Below, piece after piece: positions 2,410 through 39,338 of a stretch of DNA of 64,000 nt (within the stretch, counting starts at the first letter, position 1; the number at the start of each line of letters is the position of its first letter). Under the pieces are notes generated by a model. The model did not search any database. It had not been told where the DNA came from and saw only the letters and a list, made by a program, of their open reading frames with translations. Both the position numbers and the translations under genes were made by a program. Source of the DNA: Mycobacteriales bacterium (GTDB taxonomy: Bacteria > Actinomycetota > Actinomycetes > BP-191); assembly GCA_035536235.1 (NCBI GenBank), contig DATLOQ010000119.1, forward strand, positions 9-64,008. Reading direction: 5' to 3'.

Positions 2410-3453
2410 ATGACCGAGATGGTGGTGGCCGCGGAGGACACCGGACTGCTCCGCCGATGGCGGGAGGTGCTGCGGACCACCAACCCGCCGGCGCTCGGCC
2501 CGGACCAGCAGATCGACGTCGTGTCGAAGTGGCTGGTGCTGACCCGCGCAGCGGTGCTGCCGATGACGCTGACCGCGGGACTGGTGGCCGGCCTTCTCGC
2601 CGTACGCCAGGAGGGATTCCACTCCGGCTACTTCGCGCTGGCGCTGCTGGGCATCACCTTGGCGCACGTGTCGAACAACTTGATGAACGACCTCTTCGAC
2701 AGCGAGGTAGGCCTCGACACGAACAGCTATCCCCGGGCCCTCTACGCCCCGCACCCCATCCTGTCCGGGATGATCTCCCGGCGTGGGTTGGCCCTCGCGG
2801 CACTTGCGGTCAACGTCGCCGACCTGGCGATCGGGCTTGTGCTCTTCAGCGCCCGCGGCTGGCCGGTGCTCGCCTTCGCCGTCTCCGGCTTCCTGCTGAG
2901 CGCCGCTTACACGGCACCGCCGCTGCGGCTGAAGAAGCGGGGCCTCGGCGAGCCTGACGTGTTTCTCGTGTGGGGGCCGTTGATGGTCGGCGGGACCTAC
3001 TACTCAGCGGTCGGCTCCGTGCCGGAGGCGATCCTCGCCGCGTCCATTCCCTACGGCCTGCTCTGCACGGCCGTGCTGATGGGAAAGCACATCGACAAGA
3101 TCCCGTGGGACTCCCCCGCCGGGGTCCGGACCCTACCCGTGATCCTCGGTGAGGACCGCGCGCGAGTGCTCACTCGGGCGCTGATGATCGGCTTCTACGT
3201 CGCCGTCGTCGGCTGCGTGATCGGCGGTGCGCTGCCGTGGCCGGCCCTCGCAGTGATCGGCGCACTACCGGTGCTGGTCAAGACCCTGCAACCGCTGCGC
3301 GAGCCGCGACCCGACGCGCCACCGGCCGGCTTCCCGGTGTGGCCGCTGTGGTTCGCCGCCATCGCCTTCGTGCACACCCGCCGAGCCGGCGCGCTGCTCG
3401 TCCTCGGCCTCGCGGGCGCCGCGATCGCCGACATCCCCGCCCCGGCGCTCTGA
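2410..3453 (+). CDS. UbiA-family membrane prenyltransferase, substrate unknown
   Basis: ORF 2236..3453, trimmed to ATG 2410 (MTEMVVAAED). Asp-rich motif NNLMNDLFDSEVGLD, many hydrophobic helices, and a second conserved block YTAPPLRLKKRGLGE. Confidence 0.75.
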   Translation: MTEMVVAAEDTGLLRRWREVLRTTNPPALGPDQQIDVVSKWLVLTRAAVLPMTLTAGLVAGLLAVRQEGFHSGYFALALLGITLAHVSNNLMNDLFDSEVGLDTNSYPRALYAPHPILSGMISRRGLALAALAVNVADLAIGLVLFSARGWPVLAFAVSGFLLSAAYTAPPLRLKKRGLGEPDVFLVWGPLMVGGTYYSAVGSVPEAILAASIPYGLLCTAVLMGKHIDKIPWDSPAGVRTLPVILGEDRARVLTRALMIGFYVAVVGCVIGGALPWPALAVIGALPVLVKTLQPLREPRPDAPPAGFPVWPLWFAAIAFVHTRRAGALLVLGLAGAAIADIPAPAL

Positions 3454-3456
3454 TGG

Positions 3457-3500
3457 CCCTGCGCTCTTCCGTGTCATAGAAGACACGGAAGAGCGCAGGG
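3457..3500. terminator. Perfect 19-bp-stem hairpin between the convergent UbiA and hemY genes (bidirectional terminator candidate)
   Basis: CCCTGCGCTCTTCCGTGTC (3457..3475), loop ATAGAA, GACACGGAAGAGCGCAGGG (3482..3500). The arms are exact reverse complements. It starts 3 nt after the UbiA stop and ends at the hemY stop. No U-tract. Confidence 0.7.
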
Positions 3501-4886
3501 TCACCCGGGTCGCGCCCGAAGGTGGGCGAGGACGGTGGCCGCGGCCTTCTCCCCGGATCGGATGCAGGCGGGCACCCCCACGCCGTCGTACGCCGAGCCG
3601 GCCAGGGCCAGTCCGGGCAAAGCGGCGAGCGCGGCGTCGACCCGGGCGATTCGCTCCCGGTGCCCGACGGCGTACTGCGGCAGCGCGTCGGCCCAGCGCG
3701 AGACGCGGACCTCGAGCGGGCGCGCGGTGAGCCCGACCGCGAGCGCCAGCTCGGTGAGCAGTCGCGCCACGATCTCGTCGTCGTCGTCGGGGGCCGGCTC
3801 GCCTGCTCGCCCGACGGAGCACCGCACGATTGTCACGTCGCCCCGGTCGAGGTGCGCCCACTTCGCCGACGAGAAGGTGCACGCCTTCATCAGGCGACCT
3901 TCGGTCGCCGGCACCAGGAAGCCGCTGCCTCCCGGCGCTCCCGCCAGCGCCCCACGAGGCAGCGCCATGGTCACGACCACGACCGACGCAGTCCTGACGC
4001 CGGCGAGCTCGGTCGACACCTCGGGGGCAGCGAATCGCAGCAGGCTGCTCGCGACAGGAGCCGGCGTCGCCGCGACCACGGCATCCACCACGAGAGCGCG
4101 ACCCCCGACCAGGGTGATCCGCCACGCGTTGCCGACCCGCTCGACCAGGGCCGCCCGGGACGACAAGCGCACGGCGTCGCCGAGGGAGCGCGCGATGGCC
4201 TGGGGCAGCTGCCCGAGGCCGCCGTCGAGAGACGAGAAGACCGGCGACGTGTCGACGGGTGCGGCCGCGGTGCGGCTGCGCACCACGCGCATCACGGAAC
4301 GCTGGCCGTGCGCTGCCGCAGCCAGCTGCGGCACTGTCGACTCGAGGCTTAGCTCGTCCGCCCGACCGGCGTAGACCCCGCCGAGCAAGGGGTCAACGAG
4401 GCGGTCGACGACCTGCCGACCGAGGCGGCGCCGGACGAGCTCCCCGACACTGATGTCGCCGACGGGTGCCGACGCGGGCAGCACCAGGTCGGCCGCCGCG
4501 CGGAGCAGTCCGGCCGGCGAGAGCACCCTGCTGGATGCCAGAGATCGCCATGACCCGGGCACGCCGAGGAGAGTGCCCTCAGGAATGGGGCGTAGCCGGT
4601 CCCCGATCCACACGTAGGCCTGCCCGGTGCTTGGCGAGACCAGCAGCTCGCCGAGCCCGACCTCACGGGCCAGCCGCTCCCCCTCGGGCACCCGGGCCAG
4701 GAAGGCGTCCGCTCCCGCGTCGACCTGGAGCCCACCGATCGACGACGTGTGCAGGATGCCGCCGACCCGCGCCGACCCCTCTAGCACGATCACCTCGATG
4801 GCGGGATCAGCGGTGCGATGGAGCGCATGAGCGCAGGCCAGTCCGGAGATTCCGCCGCCGATGACGGCGACCACCCTGCGCCCCAT
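3501..4886 (-). CDS. hemY: Coproporphyrinogen III oxidase / protoporphyrinogen oxidase (CgoX, HemY type, FAD-dependent)
   Basis: 461 aa. N-terminal dinucleotide fold VVAVIGGGISGLACAH. C-terminal LAGSAYDGVGVPACIRSG, typical of HemY. ATG at 4886. Confidence 0.85.
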   Translation of the reverse strand: MGRRVVAVIGGGISGLACAHALHRTADPAIEVIVLEGSARVGGILHTSSIGGLQVDAGADAFLARVPEGERLAREVGLGELLVSPSTGQAYVWIGDRLRPIPEGTLLGVPGSWRSLASSRVLSPAGLLRAAADLVLPASAPVGDISVGELVRRRLGRQVVDRLVDPLLGGVYAGRADELSLESTVPQLAAAAHGQRSVMRVVRSRTAAAPVDTSPVFSSLDGGLGQLPQAIARSLGDAVRLSSRAALVERVGNAWRITLVGGRALVVDAVVAATPAPVASSLLRFAAPEVSTELAGVRTASVVVVTMALPRGALAGAPGGSGFLVPATEGRLMKACTFSSAKWAHLDRGDVTIVRCSVGRAGEPAPDDDDEIVARLLTELALAVGLTARPLEVRVSRWADALPQYAVGHRERIARVDAALAALPGLALAGSAYDGVGVPACIRSGEKAAATVLAHLRARPG

Positions 4887-4894
4887 GTCCTGGC

Positions 4895-5875
4895 TCAGCG
4901 CGGGGGGACCGGTACGGCGTCGGTCGTCGCAGCTCTCGCTGACTCGGGGACCAGCGGCCGCGGCCGCAGGCGCCCTTCAGCGAGGGCCACCGCCACGATG
5001 ACGACCGCCCCGCCGACGAAGAGGTTCCAGCCGAGCGGCTCGTCGAGGACGGCCACCCCTAGCGCCACCGCGACGAGCGGGATCAAGAAAGTGACCATCG
5101 ACGCGCTGGTCGCCCCGATGTCACGGATCAGCCCGTGGTAGAGCACGAAGGCGATGCCCGTGCCGAGCGCCCCGAGCGCGAGCATCGAGAGCACGACTCT
5201 CGGAGTGAGCGTCATCGGCTCCCGGGAAGCCAGCGGGGTGATGACCCCGAGGATGACGGCCGACGCCGTGAGCTGGCAGGCGGCCAGGACCACCGGCGAG
5301 ATGCCCGTGCCGGACAGCTTCTTGCGGGTGAGGTTGAAGCCGACGCCGTACGACACCGCTGCACCGAGTGCGGCCAGCTGACCGGTGATCAAGTTCGCTT
5401 GGTCCGATCCGCGCCACGGCCCCAGCACGACCACCACCCCGAGGAAGCCGAGCAGCAGCCCGTAGACCCGCTCCCGGCTGGGCCGCTCCTCAGGGAGGAA
5501 GAGGATGGCGATCACCAGGGTCATCAGCGGGGTGGTCGCGTTGTAGACCCCGGACACTCCGCTGGAGATGCGCTCGCCGGCCCACCCGAACGCGTAGAAC
5601 GGGATGACGTTCGCCACCAGCGAGAGCACTGCCACCCGCCCCCAGAGGCTGCGGTCGCGCGGCACCGGCAGTCGCCGTACGGCGACGATCAGCCAGACCA
5701 CTACCGCGCCGGCCAGGGTGCGGCCCAGAGCTACCTGCAGGGGCGACAGCCCCTCGAGGGCCACCTTGATGAAGAGGAAGCTGGTGCCCCAGACCGCACC
5801 GAGGAAGCCGAGTCGGAGCAGCGCAGACCGGCTCATTCGCGCAGAGGTCATGGCGGAGTTCGCGGGAGCAGACAC
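4895..5875 (-). CDS. EamA/DMT-family permease, co-oriented and tightly packed between hemH and hemY
   Basis: 326 aa, about 10 hydrophobic helices with duplicated EamA-like halves (GAVWGTSFLFIKVAL..., ...ALGALGTGIAFVLY). 9-nt gap to the hemH stop and 8-nt gap to the hemY start. Start uncertain (GTG 5875, ATG 5851 or ATG 5836). Confidence 0.7.
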   Translation of the reverse strand: MSAPANSAMTSARMSRSALLRLGFLGAVWGTSFLFIKVALEGLSPLQVALGRTLAGAVVVWLIVAVRRLPVPRDRSLWGRVAVLSLVANVIPFYAFGWAGERISSGVSGVYNATTPLMTLVIAILFLPEERPSRERVYGLLLGFLGVVVVLGPWRGSDQANLITGQLAALGAAVSYGVGFNLTRKKLSGTGISPVVLAACQLTASAVILGVITPLASREPMTLTPRVVLSMLALGALGTGIAFVLYHGLIRDIGATSASMVTFLIPLVAVALGVAVLDEPLGWNLFVGGAVVIVAVALAEGRLRPRPLVPESARAATTDAVPVPPR

Positions 5876-22127: not shown

Positions 22128-23720
22128 ATGCGCGACGTCGTGGTGGTCGGAGCGGGGCACAACGCCCTGGTGGCGGCGTGCTACCTCGCGCGTGAGGGGC
22201 TCGACGTCGAGGTAGTCGAGCGCAGCGATGTCGTCGGCGGGGCGGTCTCCACCGTCGAGCGCTTCCCGGGTTACCTGATGGATCGCGGCTCGAGCGCGCA
22301 CATCATGATCCGGCACACCGGCATTCTCGAAGAGCTGCGACTCGCCGAGGCGGGGTTGACGTACCAGGACCTCGACCCGTGGGGCTTCGCGCCGTACGGC
22401 GAGGAGAGCATCTACTTCTCCGTCGACCTCGACCGCACGTGCGCGTCCATCGAGAAGGTGTGCGGGAGTCAGGACGCCGACGCCTACCGCGCCTTCGTCG
22501 ACGACTGGGCCGACCGCAACGAGCGAGTGTTCAGCGCCTTCCAGGCACCGCCGACAGGCGCCAACCTCGGCCGGCACCTGTGGGGCATCGGCAAGAGCAC
22601 CGGGCTCTCCGGCATGGAGCTGTCCCGGCAGTTCCTGACCACCGCGGACCAGCTGCTCGACACCCACTTCGACGACGAGCGCCTCAAGACCGCCCTCGCC
22701 TGGATGGGCGCGCAGTCCGGCCCGCCGACCCATGAAGTGGCGACCGCTGACCTCGTCGGCTGGAACACCCTCATGCATCGTCGCCCCCCGGGGCATCCGG
22801 TCGGCGGCAGCGGCCAGCTCTCCGTCGCCCTGGCCCGCCGCCTGGCGACGTACGGCGGGGTGCTGCGACTGGGCGACGGCGCGGCGCAGATCCGCACGCA
22901 GGACGGGCGGGCGACCGGCGTACGCACCATGAGCGGAGACACGATCGAGGCCGGCATCGTGGTAGCCGGATGCCACGTGCTGACCACCGTTGGCCTGGTG
23001 GGAGACGACGCCTCGGCCGGTCCGCGATGGCAGGAGCTGGCGCAGCGCGCGCGCCGTACGGTGCGCACCGGCAACGGCATCGGCATGGTCGTGCGGCTCG
23101 GGACAACCGACCTGCCCCGATACACCGCGGCGGATCCGGCACAGGACGGCGCGGAGCACCGGGCCATGCAGCTCATCGCACCGGACCGGGTGGCGTTGCG
23201 ACGAGCCCACGGCGAGTTCAGTGCGGGCCTCCCGCCGACCCGCCCGGCGGCGTTGGCGATGACCTTCTCCGCATTCGACGACACCATCGCGCCGCCCGGA
23301 AAACATAACGTGACCGTCTGGGGGCAGTGGCATCCCTACGAGCTCTCCAACGGTGAGAGCTGGGACGGCATCCGCGAGCGGGAGGGGCAGAAGCTCGTCG
23401 ACGCCGTCGACGCCGTCGCGCCTGGCTTCGCCAGCTCGGTGGAGCACATGCACGTCCAGACCCCGCTCGACCTGGAGCGCGAGCTCGGGCTGGTGCGTGG
23501 GCAGGTGATGCACGTCGAGATGGCGCTGGACCAGATGTTCGGGTGGCGCCCGCTCCCGGAGCTCGCCGGCTACCGCACCCCGCTCGGCGGGCTCTACCTC
23601 ACCGGTGCGTCCACTCACCCCGGCGGCGGGGTCTTCGGCGCCAGCGGTCGCTCCGCGGCCCGCATCGTCCTCGCCGACCGCTCCCCCAGCCTCCTCACCC
23701 GCTTGCGCCCCCGCCGCTGA
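22128..23720 (+). CDS. CrtI-superfamily FAD oxidoreductase, CrtO-like size (possible carotenoid ketolase)
   Basis: 530 aa. VVVVGAGHNALVAACYLAREG...GGAVST dinucleotide fold. C-terminal LYLTGASTHPGGGVFG. The specific function is inferred from length and context only. Confidence 0.7.
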   Translation: MRDVVVVGAGHNALVAACYLAREGLDVEVVERSDVVGGAVSTVERFPGYLMDRGSSAHIMIRHTGILEELRLAEAGLTYQDLDPWGFAPYGEESIYFSVDLDRTCASIEKVCGSQDADAYRAFVDDWADRNERVFSAFQAPPTGANLGRHLWGIGKSTGLSGMELSRQFLTTADQLLDTHFDDERLKTALAWMGAQSGPPTHEVATADLVGWNTLMHRRPPGHPVGGSGQLSVALARRLATYGGVLRLGDGAAQIRTQDGRATGVRTMSGDTIEAGIVVAGCHVLTTVGLVGDDASAGPRWQELAQRARRTVRTGNGIGMVVRLGTTDLPRYTAADPAQDGAEHRAMQLIAPDRVALRRAHGEFSAGLPPTRPAALAMTFSAFDDTIAPPGKHNVTVWGQWHPYELSNGESWDGIREREGQKLVDAVDAVAPGFASSVEHMHVQTPLDLERELGLVRGQVMHVEMALDQMFGWRPLPELAGYRTPLGGLYLTGASTHPGGGVFGASGRSAARIVLADRSPSLLTRLRPRR

Positions 23721-25787: not shown

Positions 25788-27283
25788 TGGCGCGCATCGT
25801 CGTGATCGGTGCCGGTGTCGGCGGGCTCTCCGCCGCCGCCCGCCTCGCGGCGCTCGGACACCAGGTCACCGTGTGCGAGCAGGCCCCCGAGGTCGGCGGC
25901 AAGCTCGGTCTGCATGAGCGCGACGGATTCCGCTTCGACACCGGACCGTCGCTGCTGACGATGCCGCACCTGCTGCGCGAGCTCTTCGACGACACCGGGA
26001 GCACCCTCGACGAGGCCGTCACGCTGCGTCCGGTGGTGCCCATCGCGCACTACCGCTTCGCCGACGGCGCCGAGCTCGACTCAACCGGCGACCTCGACGC
26101 GTTCGCGGCCACCCTCGACGACGTGCTGGCTCCCGGCAGCGGCGCGGACTGGCGCCGGATTATGGCCCGCGCCGAGCAGATCTGGGCGGCCACCCACGAG
26201 GACTTCCTCGAGAGCGCGCTGGAGGGTTCACGCACTCTGCTGCGCCAAGCGACGCGAGTAGGGGACCTGCGGACGGTCGCGCCGTGGACCACGCTGCGCG
26301 GGCTCGGTCGCCGCTACCTGCGTGACCCCCGGCTGCGGATGCTCCTCGACCGCTACGCGACCTACACCGGCTCGGACCCGCGCCGCGCGCCGGCCGCGCT
26401 GGCCGTCGTGCCGTGGGTCGAGCAGACCTTCGGCGGGTGGTACGTCGAAGGCGGGCTCTCCCGCATCGGCGAGGCGATCCGCGACCGGGTGCTCGAGCGC
26501 GGCGCCGTCGTCCGGACCGGCGCAGACGTCGTCGAGGTGCGCATCGAGGGCGGCCGGGTGCGTGGGGTGCGCCTCGCCGACGGAGAGCTGCTGCCGGCCG
26601 ACCTGGTGGTCGCCAACGCCGACGCGACGCACCTCTATCGCGACCTCGTCTCCGACCCGCGCACGGCCGCCGTACGGCGACGCCTCGCCCGGGCCACGCC
26701 GAGCCTGTCCGGGTTCGTGCTGCTGCTCGGCCTGCGTGGGCGCACCCCCGACCTCGCCCACCACACCGTGCTGTTCCCGCGGAACTACGACGCGGAGTTC
26801 GACTCGCTCTTCGGCGCGACGCCGCGGCCGGTGCTGGACCCGACGATCTACCTGTCCGTGCCGACTGACGCGGCCATCGCGCCGCCTGGACACGAGGCGT
26901 GGTTCGTCCTGGTCAACGCGCCTCGACAAGGCCAGGCCGGTCGCGACGGGCCAGTCGTCGACTGGGGCGCTCCCGGCGTCGCCGACGCGTATGCCGAGCA
27001 CCTGCTCGACCTGCTGCGCGACCGCGGCCACGACGTGCGCGAGCGGATCGTGAGCCGCACCCTCATCAGCCCGGTCGACCTCGAGCGCCGTACCCGAGCG
27101 GTCGGCGGTGCCATCTACGGCACCAGCTCGAACGGCGTGCGCGCTGCCTTCCTGCGCCCGGCCAACCGCTCACCGGTGCCCGGGATGTACCTCGTCGGCG
27201 GCTCGGCTCACCCCGGCGGCGGGCTCCCGTTGGTGCTGCTCTCCGCCCGCATCGTGGCCGGACTCGTCGGCCCGGCCGGCTGA
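25787..27283 (+). CDS. CrtI-family desaturase (CrtD-like carotenoid 3,4-desaturase candidate)
   Basis: ORF 25436..27283, trimmed to ATG 25787 (MARIVVIGAGVGGLSAAARLAALGH), which overlaps the GT2 stop (TGATG). C-terminal MYLVGGSAHPGGGLPLV. Confidence 0.75.
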   Translation: MARIVVIGAGVGGLSAAARLAALGHQVTVCEQAPEVGGKLGLHERDGFRFDTGPSLLTMPHLLRELFDDTGSTLDEAVTLRPVVPIAHYRFADGAELDSTGDLDAFAATLDDVLAPGSGADWRRIMARAEQIWAATHEDFLESALEGSRTLLRQATRVGDLRTVAPWTTLRGLGRRYLRDPRLRMLLDRYATYTGSDPRRAPAALAVVPWVEQTFGGWYVEGGLSRIGEAIRDRVLERGAVVRTGADVVEVRIEGGRVRGVRLADGELLPADLVVANADATHLYRDLVSDPRTAAVRRRLARATPSLSGFVLLLGLRGRTPDLAHHTVLFPRNYDAEFDSLFGATPRPVLDPTIYLSVPTDAAIAPPGHEAWFVLVNAPRQGQAGRDGPVVDWGAPGVADAYAEHLLDLLRDRGHDVRERIVSRTLISPVDLERRTRAVGGAIYGTSSNGVRAAFLRPANRSPVPGMYLVGGSAHPGGGLPLVLLSARIVAGLVGPAG

Positions 27284-30833: not shown

Positions 30834-31718
30834 TCACGGATGGGCAACGACCCCCAGCGCGGCGTAGATCTCCCTCGTGGCCGTCGACCGGTTGAGCGTG
30901 TAGAAGTGCAGCCCGGGCGCCCCCCCGTCGAGCAGGTCGCGGCACATCCGGGTGGCCACCTCGACGCCGACCCGCCGTACCGCGATCGGGTCGTCGGCCA
31001 CCCCTCGCAGCCGCTCCGCCAGCTCCGGCGGGAACGCCGCCCCCGACATCAGGGCCATCCGCTCGATCTGGGCGACGTTGGTGACCGGCATGATCCCCGG
31101 GATGATCGGCACATCGCAGCCGCGGGCGCGGACCCGGTCGACGAGGGCGAAGTAGTCCGCCGGGTCGAAGAAGAACTGGGTGATGGCGAAGTCGGCGCCC
31201 GCCGCGCACTTCTGGGCCAGATACTTCGCGTCGGTGTCGCGGTCGGCCGACTCACGGTGCGCCTCGGGGAACGCCGCGACCCCGACGCAGAAGTCACCGA
31301 GCTCACGCAGCAGCCGGACCAGGTCCTCGGCGTATGTCAGCCCCTCAGGATGCGGCTCCCACTCCTGGTCCACTCCCCCGGGCGGGTCGCCCCGGAGAGC
31401 CAGCACATTGCGGATGCCGGCGTCGGCGATCGCCCCGATCACGTTGCGCAGCTCGTAGCGTGAGGCGCCGACACAGGTCAGGTGCGCCACCGCGGTCAGC
31501 GTCGTTTCGGTGGCGATGCGCTCGACGATGCGCAGGGTCCGATCGCGGGTCGAGCCGCCCGCGCCGTAGGTCACCGACACGAAGGTGGGGGCCAGCGGCT
31601 CGAGCTGGCGGATCGCCTGCCAGAGCTCCACCTCGCCAGCGTCGGTCTTGGGCGGGAAGAACTCGAACGAGAAGGACCGCCCCCCGGCGGCGAGCAGGTC
31701 CCGCACTGTGATGCTCAC
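30834..31718 (-). CDS. metF: Methylenetetrahydrofolate reductase
   Basis: ORF 30834..31982, trimmed to GTG 31718 ([29 protein letters not shown]). TYGAGGSTR and ITQFFFD blocks. Confidence 0.85.
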
Positions 31719-31806
31719 TCCGCAGAGGTTAGAGGACGGGAGACCTCTCGACCGGGCCGACACGGGCGCGCGGCGCCGTCGGCGGCACTGCTGGCAGAAT
31801 CGCGAC

Positions 31807-32895
31807 GTGGCCGCCAGCCGGAGATCCGTGCCCAGCCCGCTCGACGTCGCCGACCTCCGCGAGCGCGTGCACAAGGCGCTGAGTGCCTTCCTCGCTGAGC
31901 AGGTCGGCGTGCTCGACCGGATCGCGGAGGAGCTCGGCCCCATCGGCACGGCGGTGTCGGACTTCCTGCTCGACGGGGGCAAGCGGCTGAGACCGGCGTT
32001 CTGCTACTGGGGTTGGCGCGGAGCCGGCGGGCCGGACAGCGACGAGATCGTGGCAGCGGCGGCGTCCCTGGAGCTGCTGCAGGCCTGTGCGCTGATACAC
32101 GACGACGTGATGGACGGCTCCGACACCCGGCGCGGGCGGCCTGCGGTGCACCGGGGGTTCGCCGCACTTCACCGCGGCGAGGGGTGGCTGGGCGACCCGG
32201 AGACCTTCGGCACGTCCGCGGCCATCCTGCTCGGCGACCTGTGCCTGATCTGGGCCGACCAGCTGCTGAACACCTGCGGGCTGCCCGACGTGATGCTGCG
32301 CCGTGGCGCGCCGACGTACGACGAGATGCGGGTCGAGCTGATGGCCGGGCAGTACCTCGACCTGCTCGAGCAGGCACTCGGCGGCCGGGACATCGATCGG
32401 GCGCTGCGGGTGGCGCGCTACAAGAGCGCCAAGTACACGATCGAGCGCCCGCTGCACCTGGGCGGCGTGCTGGCGGGAGCGCCGACCGAGCTGCTGGCGA
32501 CCTACACCGGCTACGGGCTGCCGCTGGGCGAGGCGTTCCAGCTCCGCGACGACGTGCTGGGCGTCTTCGGCGACCCGTCGGAGACCGGCAAGCCGGCGGG
32601 CGACGACCTGCGCGAGGGCAAGCGCACCGCGCTGGTCGCAATCGCGCTGGACCGCGCCACTCCTGACCAGGCTGCCGTCGTGCGCCGGCACCTCGGCGAC
32701 CCCCACCTCGACGAGAGGGGGGTGGCCCTGCTGCGCGACGTGATCGACGGCACGGGCGCGCTGGCGGAGGTGGAGGCGCTGATCGCCCGCCGCACGGACG
32801 AGGCGCACAGTGCCCTGGGCGCTGGGGTGCTGGAGCCGGCGGCGCGAGAGGTGCTCGGCAACCTCGTCAGCGCAGCGACGTCCCGCCGCGTCTAG
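31807..32895 (+). CDS. idsA: Polyprenyl (geranylgeranyl) diphosphate synthase
   Basis: ORF 31585..32895. First Asp-rich motif [15 protein letters not shown] and second [13 protein letters not shown]. Start probably GTG 31807 (alternative ATG 31711). Confidence 0.8.
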
Positions 32896-35624
32896 ACGTG
32901 CCGGGCTCGGCGGCGGAGCGCCGCCCCGGCCAGGACGACGAGGAGCCCGAGGTGCGGCGCGACCGCGCCAGTCGCCGGCATTGGCCGCGGCGTGCGCACC
33001 GGGGGCACGGGAGCCGCGCGGACCGGCGCGGCGAGCGCTATCACGTGCACCCAACCGCCTCGGTCCTCGTACGGCATCGTCAAGCACGGCCCGATGACGC
33101 CGTCGGTGAGCGAGCAGACCTCGGACCGGGGGTGAGGGCGCCGAGCGTCGGTGAGATCGGGCCCAGAAATCTCCCGCACTGATGCGATCGCCGAGCGCAG
33201 CGCCGCCGCCACCACGGCCTGCGGAGCCCGGCCGCCGGTGTAGTCCCGCGAGGGGACCAGGCCGGAGAAGCCCGGCCGGAGGATTCGCGTCGCGAGGTTG
33301 TCCAGCGGTGGCGCGTCATAGACGTGGCTGCCCACGCCGGTCTGCCGATCGAGGATGGCATCGGATCCGTCATCCGGCAGCAGACCGGCGAAGAGCTCCC
33401 GGCGTACCGCGAGGACGAAGGCGTCGTAGAGCGTTGGCGCCGGGCCGTCGGTGGCCGGCTCACCCATCGTGTCAGCACCGGGTCCGTAGTGGCTGCCGTC
33501 CCAGGCCAGGAGCAGGTCGATCGCGGTGCGCTCGTCGGACGTCAGGTCGTCGCGACGGGCGAGCTCGGCCAGCAGGGGTCGATAGAGCGTCAGCCTGACG
33601 TCACGGCTGCCCGCCAGTCGGTCCACGGCCATCAACGCCTTGAGGTCCAAGTCCTTGCGGCCGCGCAGCAGGTCGTGCAGGAGCGTCACTCTCTGGACGG
33701 GGCCGGCAGGGCGAGAGAACGGTGCTCGCCCTTCGCCGTCCAACCAGCCGCGCGCGGGCTTGTTGTTCCAGTTGACGAGATAGCCCTCGGGCGGGTCGAC
33801 GGAGTGCGGCATCTCCTCGAAGGTCAGCAGCCCGTCCGGATCGTGCTCGCCAGTGCCAGGAGCGGGCAGCCGCATATCCACCGAGCGCTTGCGGCGCAGC
33901 TCCAGCCCCGGGTGCCAGTAGGCGATGCGCCCGTCTGCATCGGCATAGAGCACGTTCTCGTTCCAGGTGACCGCGCGGACACCGGCCTCGAACTCGGCGA
34001 AGGTGTCGGCGCTGTTCCACGCCAACGTGCCCTTGATGGTCTCGAGCTCTCGTCCCCACATGGCGTACTGCACGGACCGGGACTTAGTGCCGTCCGCGGT
34101 TGTCGCGACGATCGGCCCATGGACGGTACGGCAGGCGCGGACGTCCTGGCTGAGCAGGGCAGGGCCGACCGGCACGCCCTCGGGCGCGGCGCGGTAGCGC
34201 ACTGTCTCGGTCCGGCAGTCCGCGTCCTTCCACTTGCCGTCGTGCAGGTACTGCGGTGGATCGCCGGCGCTGGCACCCGGTCTGGTCGTCTCGATGTAGG
34301 AGTCGATGGACTTGCTATAGCCCGACGTCAGCGCCCACGCGACCCGCTTGCCGTACCCGATGCCGATCGTCGGCAGCCCTGGCACGGCCGCGCCGCGAGC
34401 GTCGTACCCGCCGCCGTGCACCTCGAGCTCCCAGAGCATGCTCGGGTAGCTGTAGCCGAGCTGCGGACCGCTGAGCAGCAGAGCCTTGCCGTCCCTAGTG
34501 TTCTTCGGCGCGACCGCTGCTGCGATGGACCCGCCGCGCAGGTTCGTCAGGTACTCGTGTACGGCGGTGACAGCGCGCGCCACGGCCGCCTGCGGGACGC
34601 CGAGCGGGTTGGCGGCCGGCGCGGCCACGGGGGCCCGTGGTGGCAGCGTCGGCTCCGGGCTGCCGCCAGTGCCGGGACCCGTGGCGAGCTCCAGCGGGAT
34701 GGTTGCGGCGAAGTCCGCCATGGACGTGAAGGTGCGAGCGCGATCAGCTGCGCTGCCCGGGATGTTGCTGAAGGAGCGACCCTGCACGGTGGTCACCGCC
34801 TTGGGGTCCTCTTGCCAGACCAGGTCCTCGAAGACTCCGCGGCCGGCGGTCTTGCCGAGCTTCGACTCCAGGGTCCGCAGCGCCGCGACGTTCTCCATCT
34901 CGTTGCCGCCCTCGGCGGCGACGAAGCGGGTGATCAGCACGCCTGCGGCGAGGACATCCCGTCGCTCCCACCGCCTCGGCGTAGTCGTCAGAAGGACGTA
35001 CTCCGCCGGCAGCAGTCGGGGATTCGCAGCCACCTCGTCGAGACGCGCGTTGACCCCGTCGACGTACCCGTCGACGGCGTCCTTGCCGGCCTGCGGCAGC
35101 GCGACGAAGAACTGCTCGTACTCCTCCGCGGAGTAGGTCAGGACGCGGGTCTTGATGTCGGCCGGGACGGACCCGCTGCCGGCCAGCTCGGCCAGCGTGC
35201 CGAGCCCCGTGCGCCGCAGGCCGTCCATGAAGAACAGCCGGTCCACCGCGGCAGAGTAGCCCGCCCCGAACCACACGTCTCGCCCGGTGTCGGCGTACAC
35301 CGCAGGCACGCCGAAGCCATCACGGTAGATGCGCACTCCCGGCTTGGGCTCCACCGGTTCGCCTTGAGCGTGGAATTTGCCGGGCTTGTATCCGAAGCCC
35401 CAGTAGAGCTCGCGTTGGTCGTCGATGTGCTCGCCGAACTCCGACGGCTTCCCTGATGCTTCTCCACGCAGCTGGCCCTCGACGGAGAAGAAGCCGCTGT
35501 TGCCGGGCGGCAGCACTGTGAACGCGGTGAGCTCCTGCCTGGGTGGGCTCTCCTGCGCCAGGGCCGGCGCGACCGGGAGGAAGCCAAGCAGGGCAACGAG
35601 GAGCGCTGCGGGGGCGATGCGCAT
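32892..35624 (-). CDS. Penicillin-acylase-family (Ntn hydrolase, S45) secreted protein with a C-terminal MPATG sorting-signal-like tail
   Basis: 910 aa. Signal peptide MRIAPAALLVALLGFLPVAPALA. LLLSGPQLGYSYPSMLWELEVHGGGYDARG is like the penicillin acylase beta-chain start. The C-terminus reads PMPATG (32967..32981), then a hydrophobic stretch, then RRRARHV. Confidence 0.8.
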   Translation of the reverse strand: MRIAPAALLVALLGFLPVAPALAQESPPRQELTAFTVLPPGNSGFFSVEGQLRGEASGKPSEFGEHIDDQRELYWGFGYKPGKFHAQGEPVEPKPGVRIYRDGFGVPAVYADTGRDVWFGAGYSAAVDRLFFMDGLRRTGLGTLAELAGSGSVPADIKTRVLTYSAEEYEQFFVALPQAGKDAVDGYVDGVNARLDEVAANPRLLPAEYVLLTTTPRRWERRDVLAAGVLITRFVAAEGGNEMENVAALRTLESKLGKTAGRGVFEDLVWQEDPKAVTTVQGRSFSNIPGSAADRARTFTSMADFAATIPLELATGPGTGGSPEPTLPPRAPVAAPAANPLGVPQAAVARAVTAVHEYLTNLRGGSIAAAVAPKNTRDGKALLLSGPQLGYSYPSMLWELEVHGGGYDARGAAVPGLPTIGIGYGKRVAWALTSGYSKSIDSYIETTRPGASAGDPPQYLHDGKWKDADCRTETVRYRAAPEGVPVGPALLSQDVRACRTVHGPIVATTADGTKSRSVQYAMWGRELETIKGTLAWNSADTFAEFEAGVRAVTWNENVLYADADGRIAYWHPGLELRRKRSVDMRLPAPGTGEHDPDGLLTFEEMPHSVDPPEGYLVNWNNKPARGWLDGEGRAPFSRPAGPVQRVTLLHDLLRGRKDLDLKALMAVDRLAGSRDVRLTLYRPLLAELARRDDLTSDERTAIDLLLAWDGSHYGPGADTMGEPATDGPAPTLYDAFVLAVRRELFAGLLPDDGSDAILDRQTGVGSHVYDAPPLDNLATRILRPGFSGLVPSRDYTGGRAPQAVVAAALRSAIASVREISGPDLTDARRPHPRSEVCSLTDGVIGPCLTMPYEDRGGWVHVIALAAPVRAAPVPPVRTPRPMPATGAVAPHLGLLVVLAGAALRRRARHV

Positions 35625-35634
35625 CCTCCGGTTA

Positions 35635-35640
35635 TACCGT
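35635..35640 (+). promoter_or_regulatory. -10-like hexamer TACCGT, 7 nt before the crtI ATG (leaderless candidate), inside a 23-bp divergent intergenic region
   Basis: GGTTATACCGTCCTGGACATG. TANNNT pattern. No Shine-Dalgarno sequence for crtI. Confidence 0.35.
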
Positions 35641-35647
35641 CCTGGAC

Positions 35648-37138
35648 ATGCGCACCGTCAGTGGTCCCAGCGATCGGGTCGTCATCGTCGGCGCCGGGCT
35701 GGCCGGGCTGTCCGCGGCGCTGCGCCTCGCCGGAGCTGGTCGCGAGGTCACTGTGCTGGAGCGCGAGTCCGTCCCCGGCGGTCGAGCAGGGCGACTCTCC
35801 GACAGCGGCTTCGAGTTCGACACCGGACCGACCGTGCTGACTATGCCGGACCTGATCCGCGACGCATTCGCGTGCGTCGGGGAGGAGATGGACGACTGGC
35901 TGACCCTGCGGCCGCTGTCCCCGCTCTACCGCGCCTACTACCCGGACGGCTCCACCCTGGACGTGCACAGCGACACCGACGCGATGGCCGAGGAGGTCGC
36001 GCGCGTCTGTGGTCCCGCCGAGGCGGCGGGCTACCGGCGCTACGTCGACTTCGTGTCGGAGCTCTACCGGCTGGAGATGGCCGACTTCATCGACCGCAAC
36101 ATCGACTCGCCCTTCTCGCTGCTGCGGCCGTCGCTGGCCCGGCTGGCGGCGATCGGCGGCTTCCGGCGGCTGGCACCCAAGGTGGGTGAGTACCTCAAGG
36201 ACCCGCGGACGCAGCGGGTGCTCTCCTTCCAGTCGATGTACGCCGGGCTGTCGCCGTACGACGCGCTCGCGATCTACGCGGTCATCGCCTACATGGACTC
36301 CGTCGCCGGCGTCTACTTCCCCGAGGGCGGCATGCACGCGGTGCCGGTCGCGCTCGCCGGCGCGGCGGTCAAGCACGGCGTCGACATCCGCTACTCCACG
36401 ACGGTGACGCAGGTCGAGGTCGTCAACGGTCGGGCCGTCGGCGTGCTCACGGCTGCCGGCGAGCGAATCCCGGCCGATGTGGTGGTGCTCAACCCGGACC
36501 TCCCGGTGGCCTATCGCGAGCTGCTGCCGCCGACCGCGGTGCCGGCGCGGGTGAAGTCGCTCACCTACTCGCCGTCGTGCTTCCTGCTGCTGGCCGGGTC
36601 GACGGCGTCGTACTCCCAGATCGCGCACCACAACATCCACTTCGGCAAGTCGTGGCGCGGCGTCTTCGACGAGCTCATCGACCAGCAGTCGCTGATGAGC
36701 GACCCCTCGGTGCTGGTGACCGCGCCCACGCACACCGACCCGTCGCTGGCACCGGAGGGCCGTCACATCTACTACGTGCTCTTTCCGACGCCCAACCTCG
36801 ACGCTGCTCTCGACTGGTCGGTCATCGGCCCGCGCTACCGCAATGAAGTCATCGGGCACCTGGAGCGCCTCGGCTACGTCGGATTCGGCGACGCGATCGA
36901 GGTCGAGCACGTGACGACGCCGGCCGACTGGAGGGCCCGCGGGATGGAGCGAGGCGCGCCGTTCGCGGCGGCGCACACCTTCTTCCAGACGGGTCCGTTT
37001 CGGCCCGCCAACCTCGCGCCCAAGGTGGACGGCGTGGTCTTCTGCGGCTCGGGCACCCAGCCGGGCGTCGGCGTACCGATGGTGCTCATCAGCGGCCGCC
37101 TCGCCGCTGAGCGCATCCTCGGCCCCAGCACGTCCTAA
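35648..37138 (+). CDS. crtI: Phytoene desaturase
   Basis: ORF 35543..37138, trimmed to ATG 35648. VVIVGAGLAGLSAALRLAGAGREVTVLE...GGRAG, SMYAGLSPYDALAIY, VVFCGSGTQPGVGVPMV. Confidence 0.85.
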   Translation: MRTVSGPSDRVVIVGAGLAGLSAALRLAGAGREVTVLERESVPGGRAGRLSDSGFEFDTGPTVLTMPDLIRDAFACVGEEMDDWLTLRPLSPLYRAYYPDGSTLDVHSDTDAMAEEVARVCGPAEAAGYRRYVDFVSELYRLEMADFIDRNIDSPFSLLRPSLARLAAIGGFRRLAPKVGEYLKDPRTQRVLSFQSMYAGLSPYDALAIYAVIAYMDSVAGVYFPEGGMHAVPVALAGAAVKHGVDIRYSTTVTQVEVVNGRAVGVLTAAGERIPADVVVLNPDLPVAYRELLPPTAVPARVKSLTYSPSCFLLLAGSTASYSQIAHHNIHFGKSWRGVFDELIDQQSLMSDPSVLVTAPTHTDPSLAPEGRHIYYVLFPTPNLDAALDWSVIGPRYRNEVIGHLERLGYVGFGDAIEVEHVTTPADWRARGMERGAPFAAAHTFFQTGPFRPANLAPKVDGVVFCGSGTQPGVGVPMVLISGRLAAERILGPSTS

Positions 37139-37192
37139 ACCCTCCTCGCCTCCCGGTCCAGGCGCCGTGGCCCGCGACCGAATTCCCCATCT

Positions 37193-37276
37193 CCGCACAC
37201 AAAGTGATCGCCATGCCGCCGGACTGAGCACGAGTCTGCAGCGAGCCGTGTGGATAGAGGACCACTTTGTGTGCGG
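37193..37276 (+). repeat. Element L: 84 bp with perfect 14-bp terminal inverted repeats (CCGCACACAAAGTG / CACTTTGTGTGCGG), 4 nt beyond the stop of the AbiEi/DUF559 gene
   Basis: Read directly. The whole element aligns to the reverse complement of element R (38268..38350) at roughly 70% by hand (17 of 19 and 12 of 13 at the two ends, plus shared internal GAGCACG and TGTGGA). Confidence 0.7.
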
Positions 37277-37280
37277 TCAG

Positions 37281-38183
37281 TCAGGGCCGGAGCATCTCCG
37301 CCAGGGTCGCAAGCACGTAGTCGGGCTCGTGGACGACGTGCTGCCAGCAGAAGCGGAGCAGCTGCAGCCCGAGGATCTCGAGCTCGTTGGCGCGCCACTC
37401 GTCAACTGCAAGCCGCTCCAGGCCGTGGAACAGGTCACCCTCGGTCTCCACAACGAGCCGGGGTGGGTACCAGAAGTCGACCCGACCGAGGCGGCGTCCG
37501 TTGGCGCGCCGAAGGAGTCGCTGAGTCTGGCCCGGCGGCATACCGGCCAAGACGACCAGGACGCGGAAGAGCGACTCCAACACCGATCCAGCCCGGGGGT
37601 TGACGAGTCCCAGCACGGTCGATACCCGCGACGCATCTCGTCCCCACAGCGCACGGCGCTCACCGATGACCGCCAGCATCCGCAACAGCCCCAATCGCAT
37701 GAGCGAGTCGATGGCCGCGACCGCGGTGCTCTGCGGCTCGGCACGAGCGAGGTCGACAGCCAGCCGGGCAGGTGCGGTCACTTTGAGCACGATCACGTCG
37801 TCGCCAACCCGCAGGCGCAGCGGTCCGACGTCCGCCGGGCCGAGATCGGATCGATGCACCTCGTACGGCGAGCTCACTCGCGACCGGTTGCGCTCTACAG
37901 TGAGGTGAGTAGCGCCGTCCCAGCCGAGTATTGGCACGCCTTGCAGCACGGCCGCGGCGGCATGGCTGACCGCAGCGCGCCGCCCAGCCGCCTCCTCGGC
38001 CACCTCGTGCACCCAGTCCGGGGAGGAGGGGATGAGCCAGGTCTTCGCGCGTACTAGCAGTACGTCGCCCCTACGCCGACGCTGGGCCAATTCGGCCGCC
38101 TCGACCCCGTGCCCGCGGGCGAACGGCGTGGAGACCAGCCGACCCGTCGCACCAGCGGCTGCCGCCAGGCTCTCGAATGACAT
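37281..38183 (-). CDS. AbiEi_4-like wHTH N-terminus plus DUF559 (Vsr-like endonuclease fold) C-terminus protein
   Basis: ORF 37281..38294, trimmed to ATG 38183 (MSFESLAAAAGATGRLVSTPFARGHGVEAAELAQRRRRGDVLLVRAKTWL). C-terminal RVDFWYPPRLVVETEGDLFH...ANELEILGLQLLRF matches the DUF559 pattern. Opposite strand to the flanking crtI and crtB. Confidence 0.65.
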   Translation of the reverse strand: MSFESLAAAAGATGRLVSTPFARGHGVEAAELAQRRRRGDVLLVRAKTWLIPSSPDWVHEVAEEAAGRRAAVSHAAAAVLQGVPILGWDGATHLTVERNRSRVSSPYEVHRSDLGPADVGPLRLRVGDDVIVLKVTAPARLAVDLARAEPQSTAVAAIDSLMRLGLLRMLAVIGERRALWGRDASRVSTVLGLVNPRAGSVLESLFRVLVVLAGMPPGQTQRLLRRANGRRLGRVDFWYPPRLVVETEGDLFHGLERLAVDEWRANELEILGLQLLRFCWQHVVHEPDYVLATLAEMLRP

Positions 38184-38267
38184 CCACCCAGCGTGCGCAC
38201 TCGCACCGTCGTACCGGGGTCGTGACGTGAATCTGTGAATAAGCCGGATCGGCGGCCGCACCCGATC

Positions 38268-38350
38268 CCGCACACAAAGGGGGCCGTCGTCCACAGGCCG
38301 AGCGGCGTCGCGTGCTCGCGGCGACGAGGGCGCGATCGCTTTGTGTGCGA
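38268..38350 (-). repeat. Element R: 83 bp, an inverted copy of element L, lying between the AbiEi/DUF559 start and the crtB start
   Basis: CCGCACACAAAG (38268..38279) and CTTTGTGTGCGA (38339..38350) pair at 11 of 12 positions. See element L for the alignment. Confidence 0.7.
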
Positions 38351-38399
38351 GCAGCTCTGATCTGGGGCCTCGCGAACCAACAGTGGGAGACTCAGGCGC

Positions 38400-39338
38400 A
38401 TGGGGTTGGTGCAGGAAGCGCTGTCACGGGGTGAGCTGCGCCGGGTCGCCGACCCGACCCTGCGGGCGTCGTACCTCGCCTGCAAGGACCTCAACGCTCG
38501 CCATGGCCGCACCTACTTCCTCGCGACGCTGCTGCTGCCGGCGTGGAAGCGCCCGTACGTGCACGCCCTCTACGGCTTTGCGCGGTACGCCGACGAGATC
38601 GTCGACGACCTCGGCTCGACCGCCAGCGACGCCGAGAAGGCGGCCCACCTCACCACCTGGGGCGAGCAGTTCCTCGCCGACGTACGCCGGGGCGAGAGCA
38701 CGGACCCGGTCTGCCGCGCGGTCGTCGACACCGTGCGCCGGTGGGACATCCCCATCGCGCACTTCGAGGCGTTCCTGCAGTCGATGCAGATGGACCTGAC
38801 CGTCACCGACTACAAGACCTACGAAGACCTGATGGTCTACGTCTACGGGTCCGCCGCAGTGATCGGGCTGCAGATGGTGCCGATCCTCGAGCCGCTGGAC
38901 GACTCGGCGTCTGCCTACGCGGCGGACCTCGGCATCGCCTTCCAGCTGGCCAACTTCATCCGCGACGTCGGCGAGGACCTGCAGCGCGGCCGCATCTACC
39001 TCCCGTTGGAGGACCTGCAAGCGTTCGGCGTCGACCGCGAGCACCTCGCGCGCGGTGTCGTAGACGGCCCGATACGACGGCTGCTGGCCTTCGAGATATC
39101 CCGCACCCGCGAGATCTTCCGGGCCGCCCGCCCCGGCGTCCGCCTGCTGCACTCGACCAGCCGCGACTGCATCGAGACGGCGCTCACCCTCTACGGCGGC
39201 ATCCTGGACGAGGTGGAGGCCGCCGACTACCAGGTGCTCGACCGGCGGGTCTCCGTCGGCCTGCCCCGGCGGGCGGCCGTCGCCGGCCGGGGAATCGTCC
39301 GGGCCCGGCGGGCGCGCCGCCGTGGCCCCTGGGCGTAG
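38400..39338 (+). CDS. crtB: Phytoene synthase
   Basis: 312 aa. YVHALYGFARYADEIVDD and LANFIRDVGEDLQRGRIYLP. GGGAGA lies 9 nt before the ATG. Confidence 0.9.
   Translation: MGLVQEALSRGELRRVADPTLRASYLACKDLNARHGRTYFLATLLLPAWKRPYVHALYGFARYADEIVDDLGSTASDAEKAAHLTTWGEQFLADVRRGESTDPVCRAVVDTVRRWDIPIAHFEAFLQSMQMDLTVTDYKTYEDLMVYVYGSAAVIGLQMVPILEPLDDSASAYAADLGIAFQLANFIRDVGEDLQRGRIYLPLEDLQAFGVDREHLARGVVDGPIRRLLAFEISRTREIFRAARPGVRLLHSTSRDCIETALTLYGGILDEVEAADYQVLDRRVSVGLPRRAAVAGRGIVRARRARRRGPWA

Follow-up and report, generated by a model that had tools for sequence, protein, structure and literature searches.

Related systems and the locus under study

Systems in which repetitive extragenic palindromes (REP, or REPIN as doublets) are paired with REP-associated tyrosine transposases (RAYT) have mostly proteobacterial hosts and share a recognisable anatomy: a single chromosomal gene lies between two short copies of a palindromic element, usually mutually inverted, the element sequence is specific to the lineage and co-varies with the protein, orphan copies are intergenic, and the gene stays for long at fixed sites. 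Similar features are presented by positions 37193-38350 of a stretch of 64,000 nucleotides (the window) from a Mycobacteriales metagenome-assembled genome (MAG), and by its relatives; in the window, a gene for a protein with an AbiEi-like winged helix-turn-helix (wHTH) part and a nuclease domain is bracketed by two elements of about 84 bp, designated L and R, each of which, like a REPIN doublet, consists of two inverted half-sites around a spacer. On an evenly balanced judgement this 1.16-kb interval is a coherent unit, a gene with two inverted cognate palindromes, that most resembles the REP/REPIN-RAYT systems but is built on a different enzyme. The differences are that the protein combines the AbiEi-like wHTH with a Vsr-fold nuclease of PD-(D/E)XK type in place of an HUH/Y1 transposase, that the chemistry is of another kind, the substrate probably being duplex rather than a single-stranded hairpin, that the copy number appears very low (no extra copy in 64 kb, and a handful in Tsukamurella tyrosinosolvens), and that the hosts are Actinomycetota.

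The abiE and rv2827c promoters contain inverted repeats to which AbiEi and Rv2827c themselves bind, one monomer per repeat, and the negative autoregulation of AbiEi involves 23-bp promoter inverted repeats with a spacing of 3-13 bp (PMC7319586). The N-terminal 195 residues of the protein in the window share the two-domain AbiEi fold, and here too inverted repeats stand upstream of the gene, the half-sites lying 85-167 nt upstream of the ATG and 59 nt apart. Unlike the type IV AbiE toxin-antitoxin (TA) systems, the present one has a fused nuclease domain and no AbiEii (DUF1814) toxin gene, its half-sites are separated by about 60 bp, compared with 3-13 bp there, and a second pair of half-sites occurs at the 3' end of the gene, in addition to orphan sites elsewhere.

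A further point of comparison is I-Bth0305I, a homodimeric homing endonuclease of Vsr fold whose footprint on its pseudopalindromic site spans about 60 bp (PMC3239194). Common to this EDxHD enzyme and the protein in the window are the fold of the catalytic domain (3r3p) and a multidomain construction with a separate DNA-binding region; the footprint is also similar in size to L and R, and in both cases some genomes have the gene at a defined site and others lack it there. By way of contrast, the gene in the window is not located in an intron or intein, its DNA-binding part is AbiEi-like, palindromes stand at both of its ends, and the acidic motif of its product is altered.

Miniature inverted-repeat transposable elements (MITEs) such as Correia and NEMIS, and insertion sequences (IS), resemble L and R in their shortness and terminal inverted repeats, while the unit as a whole resembles an IS in having imperfect terminal inverted repeats of about 84 bp and in its insertion polymorphism among relatives. 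The unit departs from both classes in that it lacks a DDE, HUH or serine/tyrosine transposase, that each of its terminal repeats is itself a hairpin, and that neither a target-site duplication nor a multicopy population was detected. The IS200/IS605 elements likewise have hairpin-forming ends around a small nuclease-type gene; they differ in enzyme family and in that their hairpins are asymmetric and confined to one strand, whereas those described here are near-perfect palindromes in mutually inverted orientation.

The domain families and folds are already known (PMC3424549, PMC3710099, PMC3239194), as are AbiEi operators (PMC7319586). No description of the gene-plus-palindromes arrangement was found in full-text searches of the literature on DUF559/MTES_1575/AbiEi_4 proteins, actinobacterial RAYT/REPIN or Vsr-like homing endonucleases. 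Partnerships of palindromic repeats with genes for nucleases or transposases are in themselves a known kind of system, and there is a sizeable chance that the unit in the window is something more.

The two palindromic elements

The features of the unit and its flanks are as follows.

35543..37138, plus strand: crtI (phytoene desaturase), the left host flank, outside the unit
37193..37276, no strand assigned: element L (the downstream or D element), 84 bp, with self-palindromic ends
37193..37206, plus strand: outer half-site of L, CCGCACACAAAGTG, followed by GATCGC
37224..37232, plus strand: central CTGAGCACG motif of L, corresponding to the CRYGCTCAG / GCTCAGC centre of related elements
37263..37276, minus strand: inner half-site of L, CACTTTGTGTGCGG, the reverse complement of the outer one
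37281..38183, minus strand: gene for a 300-aa AbiEi-like wHTH plus Vsr/DUF559 (EDxHD-like) nuclease, with its ATG at 38183
38268..38350, no strand assigned: element R (the upstream or U element), 83 bp, inverted homologue of L
38268..38279, plus strand: inner half-site of R, CCGCACACAAAG
38311..38319, plus strand: central CGTGCTCGC motif of R, the other-strand counterpart of the L centre
38339..38350, minus strand: outer half-site of R, CTTTGTGTGCGA, preceded by GCGATCG
38400..39338, plus strand: crtB (phytoene synthase), the right host flank

A preliminary description of this stretch had proposed L, R and the gene between crtI and crtB, and all of these features were recovered at the positions it gave, with L lying 4 nt past the nuclease stop codon and 54 nt past that of crtI, and R lying 85 nt upstream of the nuclease ATG and 49 nt upstream of that of crtB. 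The terminal inverted repeat of L is perfect over 14 bp (CCGCACACAAAGTG/CACTTTGTGTGCGG), that of R is perfect over 11 bp (CGCACACAAAG/CTTTGTGTGCG) or 11 of 12 when extended, and the ends CGCACACAAAG/CTTTGTGTGCG are common to both. When the 11-mer CGCACACAAAG was sought throughout the window with at most one mismatch, it occurred at four positions only, all of them within L and R; the corresponding shuffle control gave a mean of 0.69 matches and reached four in 2 of 100 shuffles.

After the 12-nt arms had been stripped, the 60-nt interior of L aligned to the reverse complement of R with identity at 40 of 64 columns (z = 4.46), a score reached by none of 2000 shuffles, whereas the direct orientation gave z = 0.15. 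This inverted-only alignment indicates that L and R are homologous copies beyond their common ends, and puts the L/R similarity first noticed by hand above background. Scans of positions 37000-38500 for sigma-70-like promoters and intrinsic (T-run) terminators returned none of either (0 terminator-like sites).

Half-sites, arms and element centres

Relatives of the unit were compared at a series of loci designated by L numbers (L001 and so on). Among 14 elements of what may be termed the CACAC class, the CACAC core is invariant in all 14, another conserved block, ACC, is found 5-6 nt to the outside of that core, and the four positions after CACAC differ between genomes and are paired in 10-13 of the 14. 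The variants found were AAAG at all four half-sites of the window, ATTG at all four of L004, where CCGCACACATTG stands in place of CCGCACACAAAG, AAC at all four of L006, and ATCC at both half-sites of the single element seen at L005. It was apparent that one genome has one half-site variant, although the loops of its two elements have diverged almost to background, and at L006 and L017 the likeness of half-sites between elements exceeds their complementarity within an element. Such matching across both elements points to one trans-acting reader for both, for which the encoded wHTH is the simplest candidate, since hairpin structure is insufficient to account for it. The arms behave like recognition sites and, as judged from their patterns of variation, are probably bound by the wHTH, an assignment with which the variable N terminus and conserved nuclease domain of the protein (see below) are consistent.

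The same data bear on an explanation at the RNA level, in which the elements would be stem-loops in the 5'- and 3'-untranslated regions of the nuclease mRNA, or structures in crtI-crtB read-through transcripts, that control stability, termination or translation and could pair mutually. As RNA of either strand, L and R both give significantly better folds than shuffled sequences (z from -2.9 to -4.6), and arm complementarity is kept through changes on both sides, as such an explanation would predict. It is nevertheless improbable: identity of all four half-sites is not required by a hairpin, the between-element likeness at L006 and L017 runs contrary to it, loops are not conserved, and orphan elements lie between convergent or divergent unrelated genes. 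An Rfam search of positions 36500-39000 at E up to 10 provided no family match for either element, its two chance-level matches both being outside L and R.

At the centres of the elements, GCTCAG/CTGAGC (often as GCTCAGC) was present in 10 of 53 sequence windows against a background of 1%, and in three unrelated arm classes; the elements concerned are L and R themselves and those at L004, L005, L012, L020, L060, L091 and L092. This centre could be a conserved site of cleavage or binding for the nuclease domain, and its enrichment too agrees with a trans-acting reader of the elements.

GATC was also observed directly inside the outer half-site of several CACAC-class elements (GTGATCGC / GCGATCGC), at 37205-37210 and 38333-38338 in the window and likewise at L004, L014 and L015.

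The nuclease gene and its product

The choice of the ATG at 38183 is backed by the aligned N termini of homologues. Residues ~1-195 of the product form an AbiEi-like module of wHTH plus C-terminal domain, and residues ~200-300 form a Vsr/DUF559 nuclease domain. The Pfam DUF559 match is marginal (21.6 bits against a cut-off of 20.6), while the PADLOC AbiEi models match residues 4-167 (E 7.8e-10), and a 10-sequence profile compared with the Protein Data Bank (PDB) matched 3hrl, a DUF559 structure (E 3.4e-7), and 3r3p, I-Bth0305I (E 0.011). An AlphaFold2 (AF2) model of the protein (mean predicted local distance difference test, pLDDT, 88.4; predicted TM-score, pTM, 0.86) was submitted to Foldseek, with which residues 1-195 matched AbiEi 6y8q_A (E 3.4e-5, probability 1.0) and the C-terminal domain matched 3r3p_B, the catalytic domain of I-Bth0305I (probability 0.99, TMt 0.69, root-mean-square deviation 3.6), and likewise 3hrl. 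Ten aligned family members matched MTES_1575 in every case, DUF559 in nine and AbiEi_4 in five. The marginal Pfam score apart, the predicted assignment of an AbiEi-like plus a Vsr-like domain is firm.

The 10-sequence protein alignment contains many invariant columns in residues 200-300 and none before residue 73. D236, E246, H253 and D261 are invariant across the family alignment, and the E[TA]DG...HSD motif of relatives is represented by ETEG...HGLE / HGPD in the window and L004 proteins; pLDDT in the AF2 model is below 50 at residues 251-254. A dN/dS of 0.27 between the gene in the window and its 67%-identical L004 orthologue indicates that the nuclease gene is under purifying selection. 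Its GC content at third codon positions (GC3) is 0.81, compared with 0.90-0.94 for crtI and crtB.

No HUH family was matched in a family scan of the protein, and no transposase family in family scans of the proteins of the locus. An AbiEii (DUF1814) toxin gene was found neither beside the gene in the window, the only neighbours of which are crtI and crtB, nor at the loci of relatives; the system in the window is therefore not an AbiE TA system.

Occupied and empty sites upstream of crtB

In silico deletion of 37193-38350 left 103 nt between crtI and crtB, close to the 100 bp or so anticipated, and comparison of the junction in close relatives, as had been suggested at the outset, located a real empty site at L007/L008 (crtI 93% identical), where the crtI-crtB spacer is 40 nt and contains no hairpin. 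The closest relative, L006 (crtI 94%, crtB 91%), carries a different cassette at this position, with a protein 37% identical to that of the window and arms CCACACAAC. The more distant L004 (crtI 78%) has the cassette type of the window, with a protein 67% identical and both elements present, and L017 (crtB 64%) retains the order crtI-cassette-crtB, again with both elements. At L005 (crtI 80%), L012 (crtB 71%) and L097 (crtB 75%) the cassette adjoins crtB upstream with other genes on its far side, that at L097 having a further arm type, GCGACACGCCG. The site upstream of crtB is empty at L009, L094/L095 and L096 (crtB 74-76%). In all, seven loci are occupied (window, L004, L005, L006, L012, L017 and L097) and five are empty, and the gene beyond the cassette varies between crtI, an mptA-like gene and a 524-aa gene.

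Host genes and cassette gave opposite orders of relatedness. Identities to the window for L006, L007/L008 and L004, respectively, were 87, 84 and 71% for crtE, 94, 93 and 78% for crtI, 91, 88 and about 66% for crtB, and 90, 88 and about 78% for the BNR gene, and five host genes concur in placing the window nearest to L006, then L007/L008, and farthest from L004. The nuclease protein is 37% identical in L006, absent in L007/L008 and 67% identical in L004. On these identities the cassette tree and the host tree are in conflict; crtI dS was about 0.5 in all comparisons, owing to GC3 saturation, and was excluded from dating. These comparisons imply that gain, replacement or loss of the cassette took place precisely within the spacer and involved both elements together, and the aligned loci show the unit to be present or absent as a whole.

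The same pattern invites comparison with a free-standing homing endonuclease cassette aimed upstream of crtB, which would cut empty alleles and be copied in by repair, the hairpins being accessory (insulators, terminators or outward promoters) and not recognition sites. The match of the nuclease fold to I-Bth0305I, the seven occupied sites directly upstream of crtB whatever the gene opposite, the five empty ones, and the discordance of cassette and host trees would all be expected of such a cassette. Co-conversion of the flanks by L004-like DNA would be expected too, and none was detected, the 3' end of crtI and the 5' end of crtB in the window resembling L006/L007 and not L004; moreover, insertion points differ among loci (4, about 34 and 54 nt beyond the stop of crtI), the bracket recurs among family members at numerous unrelated loci, where arm and protein sequences co-vary, which suggests that the elements themselves are recognised, and orphan elements are left unexplained. 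We judge a homing cassette of this kind to be an unlikely source of the arrangement.

Two candidates arising from the junctions were discarded, namely a tentative GCGACCGA/GCGAACCA target duplication, as unsupported, and a target motif beside the outer ends of upstream elements, for which inspection by eye gave a weak GCAGC-like similarity only.

At all occupied loci the U element is within ~25-110 nt of the crtB start, whatever gene lies opposite, and where relatives have an empty site the coupling of crtB to the preceding gene is tight (from overlap to 40 nt). Insertion of the cassette must break this operon coupling, and crtB may then rely on read-through or on an outward promoter of the element. 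At L006, a 14-bp tandem repeat present three times (GGGGGTACGACGNC, 3925-3970) lies between the U element and crtB, and is absent in the window. At L004, crtB (4888-5804) and the BNR-repeat gene (3375-4705) are each split over three reading frames; as these are two neighbouring genes in a 'contig_NNNN' assembly, sequencing indels are more likely than pseudogenes.

Cultured representatives and orphan elements

T. tyrosinosolvens NCTC13231 has an annotated DUF559 gene (product WP_068740572.1) with a 42-nt palindrome on either side (TGCGGTGGAT...ATCCACCGCA); the two palindromes are 93% complementary to each other, and the bracket fills the gap between two host genes. Among the contigs of this strain that were covered, about 2-3 orphan copies, 88% identical, occur on two others between unrelated genes, with no DUF559 gene within 2.5 kb. 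When 185,579 species genomes were scanned for the exact pattern CGCACACAAAG-N45-75-CTTTGTGTGCG, two orphans with the exact 11-nt ends of the window were recovered in Actinoallomurus vinaceus, so that two cultured genomes contain such copies; a perfect CGCACACAAAG/CTTTGTGTGCG hairpin in a Fibrobacteraceae MAG was regarded as chance. The orphans lie between convergent or divergent unrelated genes, and those of T. tyrosinosolvens and A. vinaceus indicate that elements are able to exist alone at low copy number.

One Actinoallomurus orphan (L001, 266-335) is ~110 nt from a tRNA-Gly gene (443-516), which is followed by a tyrosine-recombinase/integrase-like open reading frame (ORF) at 608-1399; this setting is typical of a genomic-island border.

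The bracket across the family

A metagenome scan with the family alignment yielded 80 loci, of which 52 had both flanks. An exact match of at least 13 nt common to the 5' and 3' flanks was present at 25 of the 52 (48%), compared with 10 of 306 cross-locus controls (3%), and the common sequences proved to be the arms of hairpin elements of 40-100 nt that differ by lineage. Flank comparison thus reveals a family-wide bracket with lineage-specific arms. At conserved-loop loci the elements are usually inverted (L038, 46/48; L042; L059) and sometimes direct (L039), and inverted interior homology was also found at L091.

These frequencies leave little room for coincidence, that is, for two unrelated MITE or REP copies having landed on either side of an ordinary gene, as the preliminary description had considered. 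Each element taken singly is indeed MITE-like (84 bp with 12-14-bp terminal inverted repeats), and the part of the proposal that survives is that elements can stand alone, as in T. tyrosinosolvens and A. vinaceus. The chance pairing itself is effectively refuted, and exceedingly improbable, in the face of the bracket frequency (48% of family loci, 3% of controls) and its lineage-specific arms, of a bracket at every occupied crt locus, L097 included, and in T. tyrosinosolvens, and of the lack of any other copy within the 64-kb window.

In the majority of distant members the stop codon of the gene falls inside the downstream palindromic element, an arm of which encodes the last residues (L020, L021, L024-L026, L028, L029, L032, L033, L035, L037-L039, L042, L058, L059, L061 and L088), whereas that in the window lies 4 nt outside. 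A profile search placed the family at 6,130 cluster representatives (50% identity) at E up to 1e-30 and at 30,837 at E up to 1e-10; the class of unit is very large and mainly actinobacterial, and in Actinomycetota it is multi-copy and uncharacterised. When two family proteins were compared with PLSDB by tblastn, the matches were confined to the T. tyrosinosolvens contig and to distant DUF559 domains in Bacillaceae.

Extra copies of locus-specific arm 15-mers (AACGTGCAATAGTCC) were noted beyond the flanking elements at 150 and 1801 of L042 and at 2960 of L059, pointing to small element clusters in the surroundings of some family members.

A stationary, autoregulated gene would account for part of this pattern. 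On such an explanation the U element would be an operator/promoter and the D element a terminator or second operator, possibly with formation of a repression loop, the product would be a defence- or TA-like nuclease, nothing would be mobile, and presence or absence would reflect ordinary gain and deletion. It draws on the autoregulation of AbiEi and Rv2827c through inverted repeats (PMC7319586), on the position of R 85 nt before the ATG and of L abutting the stop codon, on the stop codons inside the downstream elements in the majority of distant relatives, and on the occurrence of several classes at conserved chromosomal sites in a family near-absent from plasmids. It fails to explain the inverted D/U homology of the interiors (window, L038, L042, L059 and L091), the orphans far from any such gene, and the occupation of one 40-100-nt spacer by unrelated cassette lineages in sister genomes; nor does it sit easily with the lack of an AbiEii (DUF1814) partner, with half-sites ~60 bp apart against 3-13 bp in characterised AbiEi operators, or with the absence of detected T-run terminators and sigma-70-like promoters from 37000-38500. 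We therefore regard it as rather unlikely as a complete account. The narrower suggestion made at the outset, that L and R are operators of the wHTH, is plausible and compatible with a mobile cassette; the four half-sites change jointly between the window and L004, and the AbiEi precedent applies (PMC7319586). Operators alone leave the downstream copy and the orphans unexplained.

Proposed mode of action

Under the preferred reading, a coherent unit analogous to REP/REPIN-RAYT systems, the variable wHTH would read lineage-specific outer half-sites, here approximately ACC-N5-6-GCACACA-AAG, which number two in each element and four in the unit. Binding to the upstream element would lead to AbiEi-style autoregulation of the gene, and binding would also set the conserved nuclease domains over the element centre (the GCTCAG-like motif), where a nick or cut would be made. 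Repair or recombination at the breaks would copy or move elements, giving rise to orphans, and now and then the whole element-gene-element unit would enter new sites or other genomes. Such movement would account for a spacer upstream of crtB that is empty in some sister genomes and holds different cassette lineages in others.

The initial proposal of a mobile or formerly mobile cassette between long inverted repeats is largely upheld by the presence or absence of whole units, by lineage turnover in the spacer and by the inverted L/R homology; we infer that the unit is mobile at least occasionally, as we do the binding, the cleavage, its position and the mechanism of movement. In its most general form the proposal is that wHTH-DUF559/MTES_1575 proteins are dedicated partners of lineage-specific palindromes and represent a second, HUH-independent version of the REP/RAYT lifestyle, in which the wHTH reads the arms, a Vsr-type nuclease cuts the centre, elements are spread and maintained, and the whole unit repeatedly invades the site upstream of crtB; this we offer tentatively, as a possibility that falls somewhat short of being probable.

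Several observations weigh against these proposals. About half of the family loci have no common flank sequence at the threshold used. One such member is L090 (P0128, 43% identical), with an acetyltransferase gene on one side and a rarA/mgsA-like AAA ATPase gene on the other; it has no matching flank hairpins, its two small direct hairpins both being downstream, and its ORF is apparently N-terminally truncated. Several arm classes are found at conserved chromosomal sites, with flanks 72-98% identical (tblastx of the flanks was re-filtered at 110 bits or more, a lower threshold being swamped by high-GC noise), and the family is almost absent from plasmids, two features more in keeping with genes that stay in place over long periods than with active transposons. 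In agreement with the preliminary description, no target-site duplication was established, and neither that nor exact boundaries could be defined when the window, L004 and L006 junctions were aligned to the empty L007 spacer, only the 3' end of crtI and ~30 nt upstream of the crtB ATG being alignable and the remainder having diverged too far. Orphans were seen in two other genomes only, in a handful of copies, and no extra element copy exists within the 64-kb window; any dispersed population of elements would be far sparser than that of classical REPs. The enrichment of the central motif rests on elements that are partly orthologous and non-independent. The altered E-x-D-G...H-S-D motif makes the full catalytic competence of the window/L004 branch uncertain, and catalysis there may be weakened. 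For every family member, moreover, binding, cleavage and transposition are processes that we infer. On the other side, relatives do not uniformly carry the gene at this position without the elements, the elements are not ubiquitous REPs, and the similarity of L and R is not at background level, three outcomes that had been named beforehand as fatal to the cassette.

Few unexplained multi-copy genes of Actinomycetota are as common as those of DUF559/AbiEi-like type, and the defined anatomy described here, comprising a gene, two cognate palindromes, co-varying arms and possibly a conserved centre, makes this domain of unknown function experimentally tractable. If the REP/RAYT analogy is true, partnerships between nucleases and palindromes would have arisen convergently on an unrelated enzyme scaffold, and the family would provide natural pairs of wHTH specificity and half-site, such as AAAG (window) and ATTG (L004). 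The unit may also account for operon-splitting insertions such as the separation of crtI and crtB, and caution in annotation is advisable, wHTH-DUF559 genes not being AbiE antitoxins.

Further features of the crt cluster

Between the crtE-like polyprenyl synthase gene (31570-32895) and crtI, the window contains a 910-aa penicillin-amidase-family gene on the minus strand (32892-35624). Elsewhere the crtE-crtI junction is direct (L006) or holds a 434-aa gene (L007) or a 265-aa gene (L004), both without a Pfam match, and this junction is a second variable spot of the cluster. Two upstream amine-oxidase paralogues of crtI type, at 25793-27277 and 22137-22964, are 32% and 28% identical to crtI, respectively.

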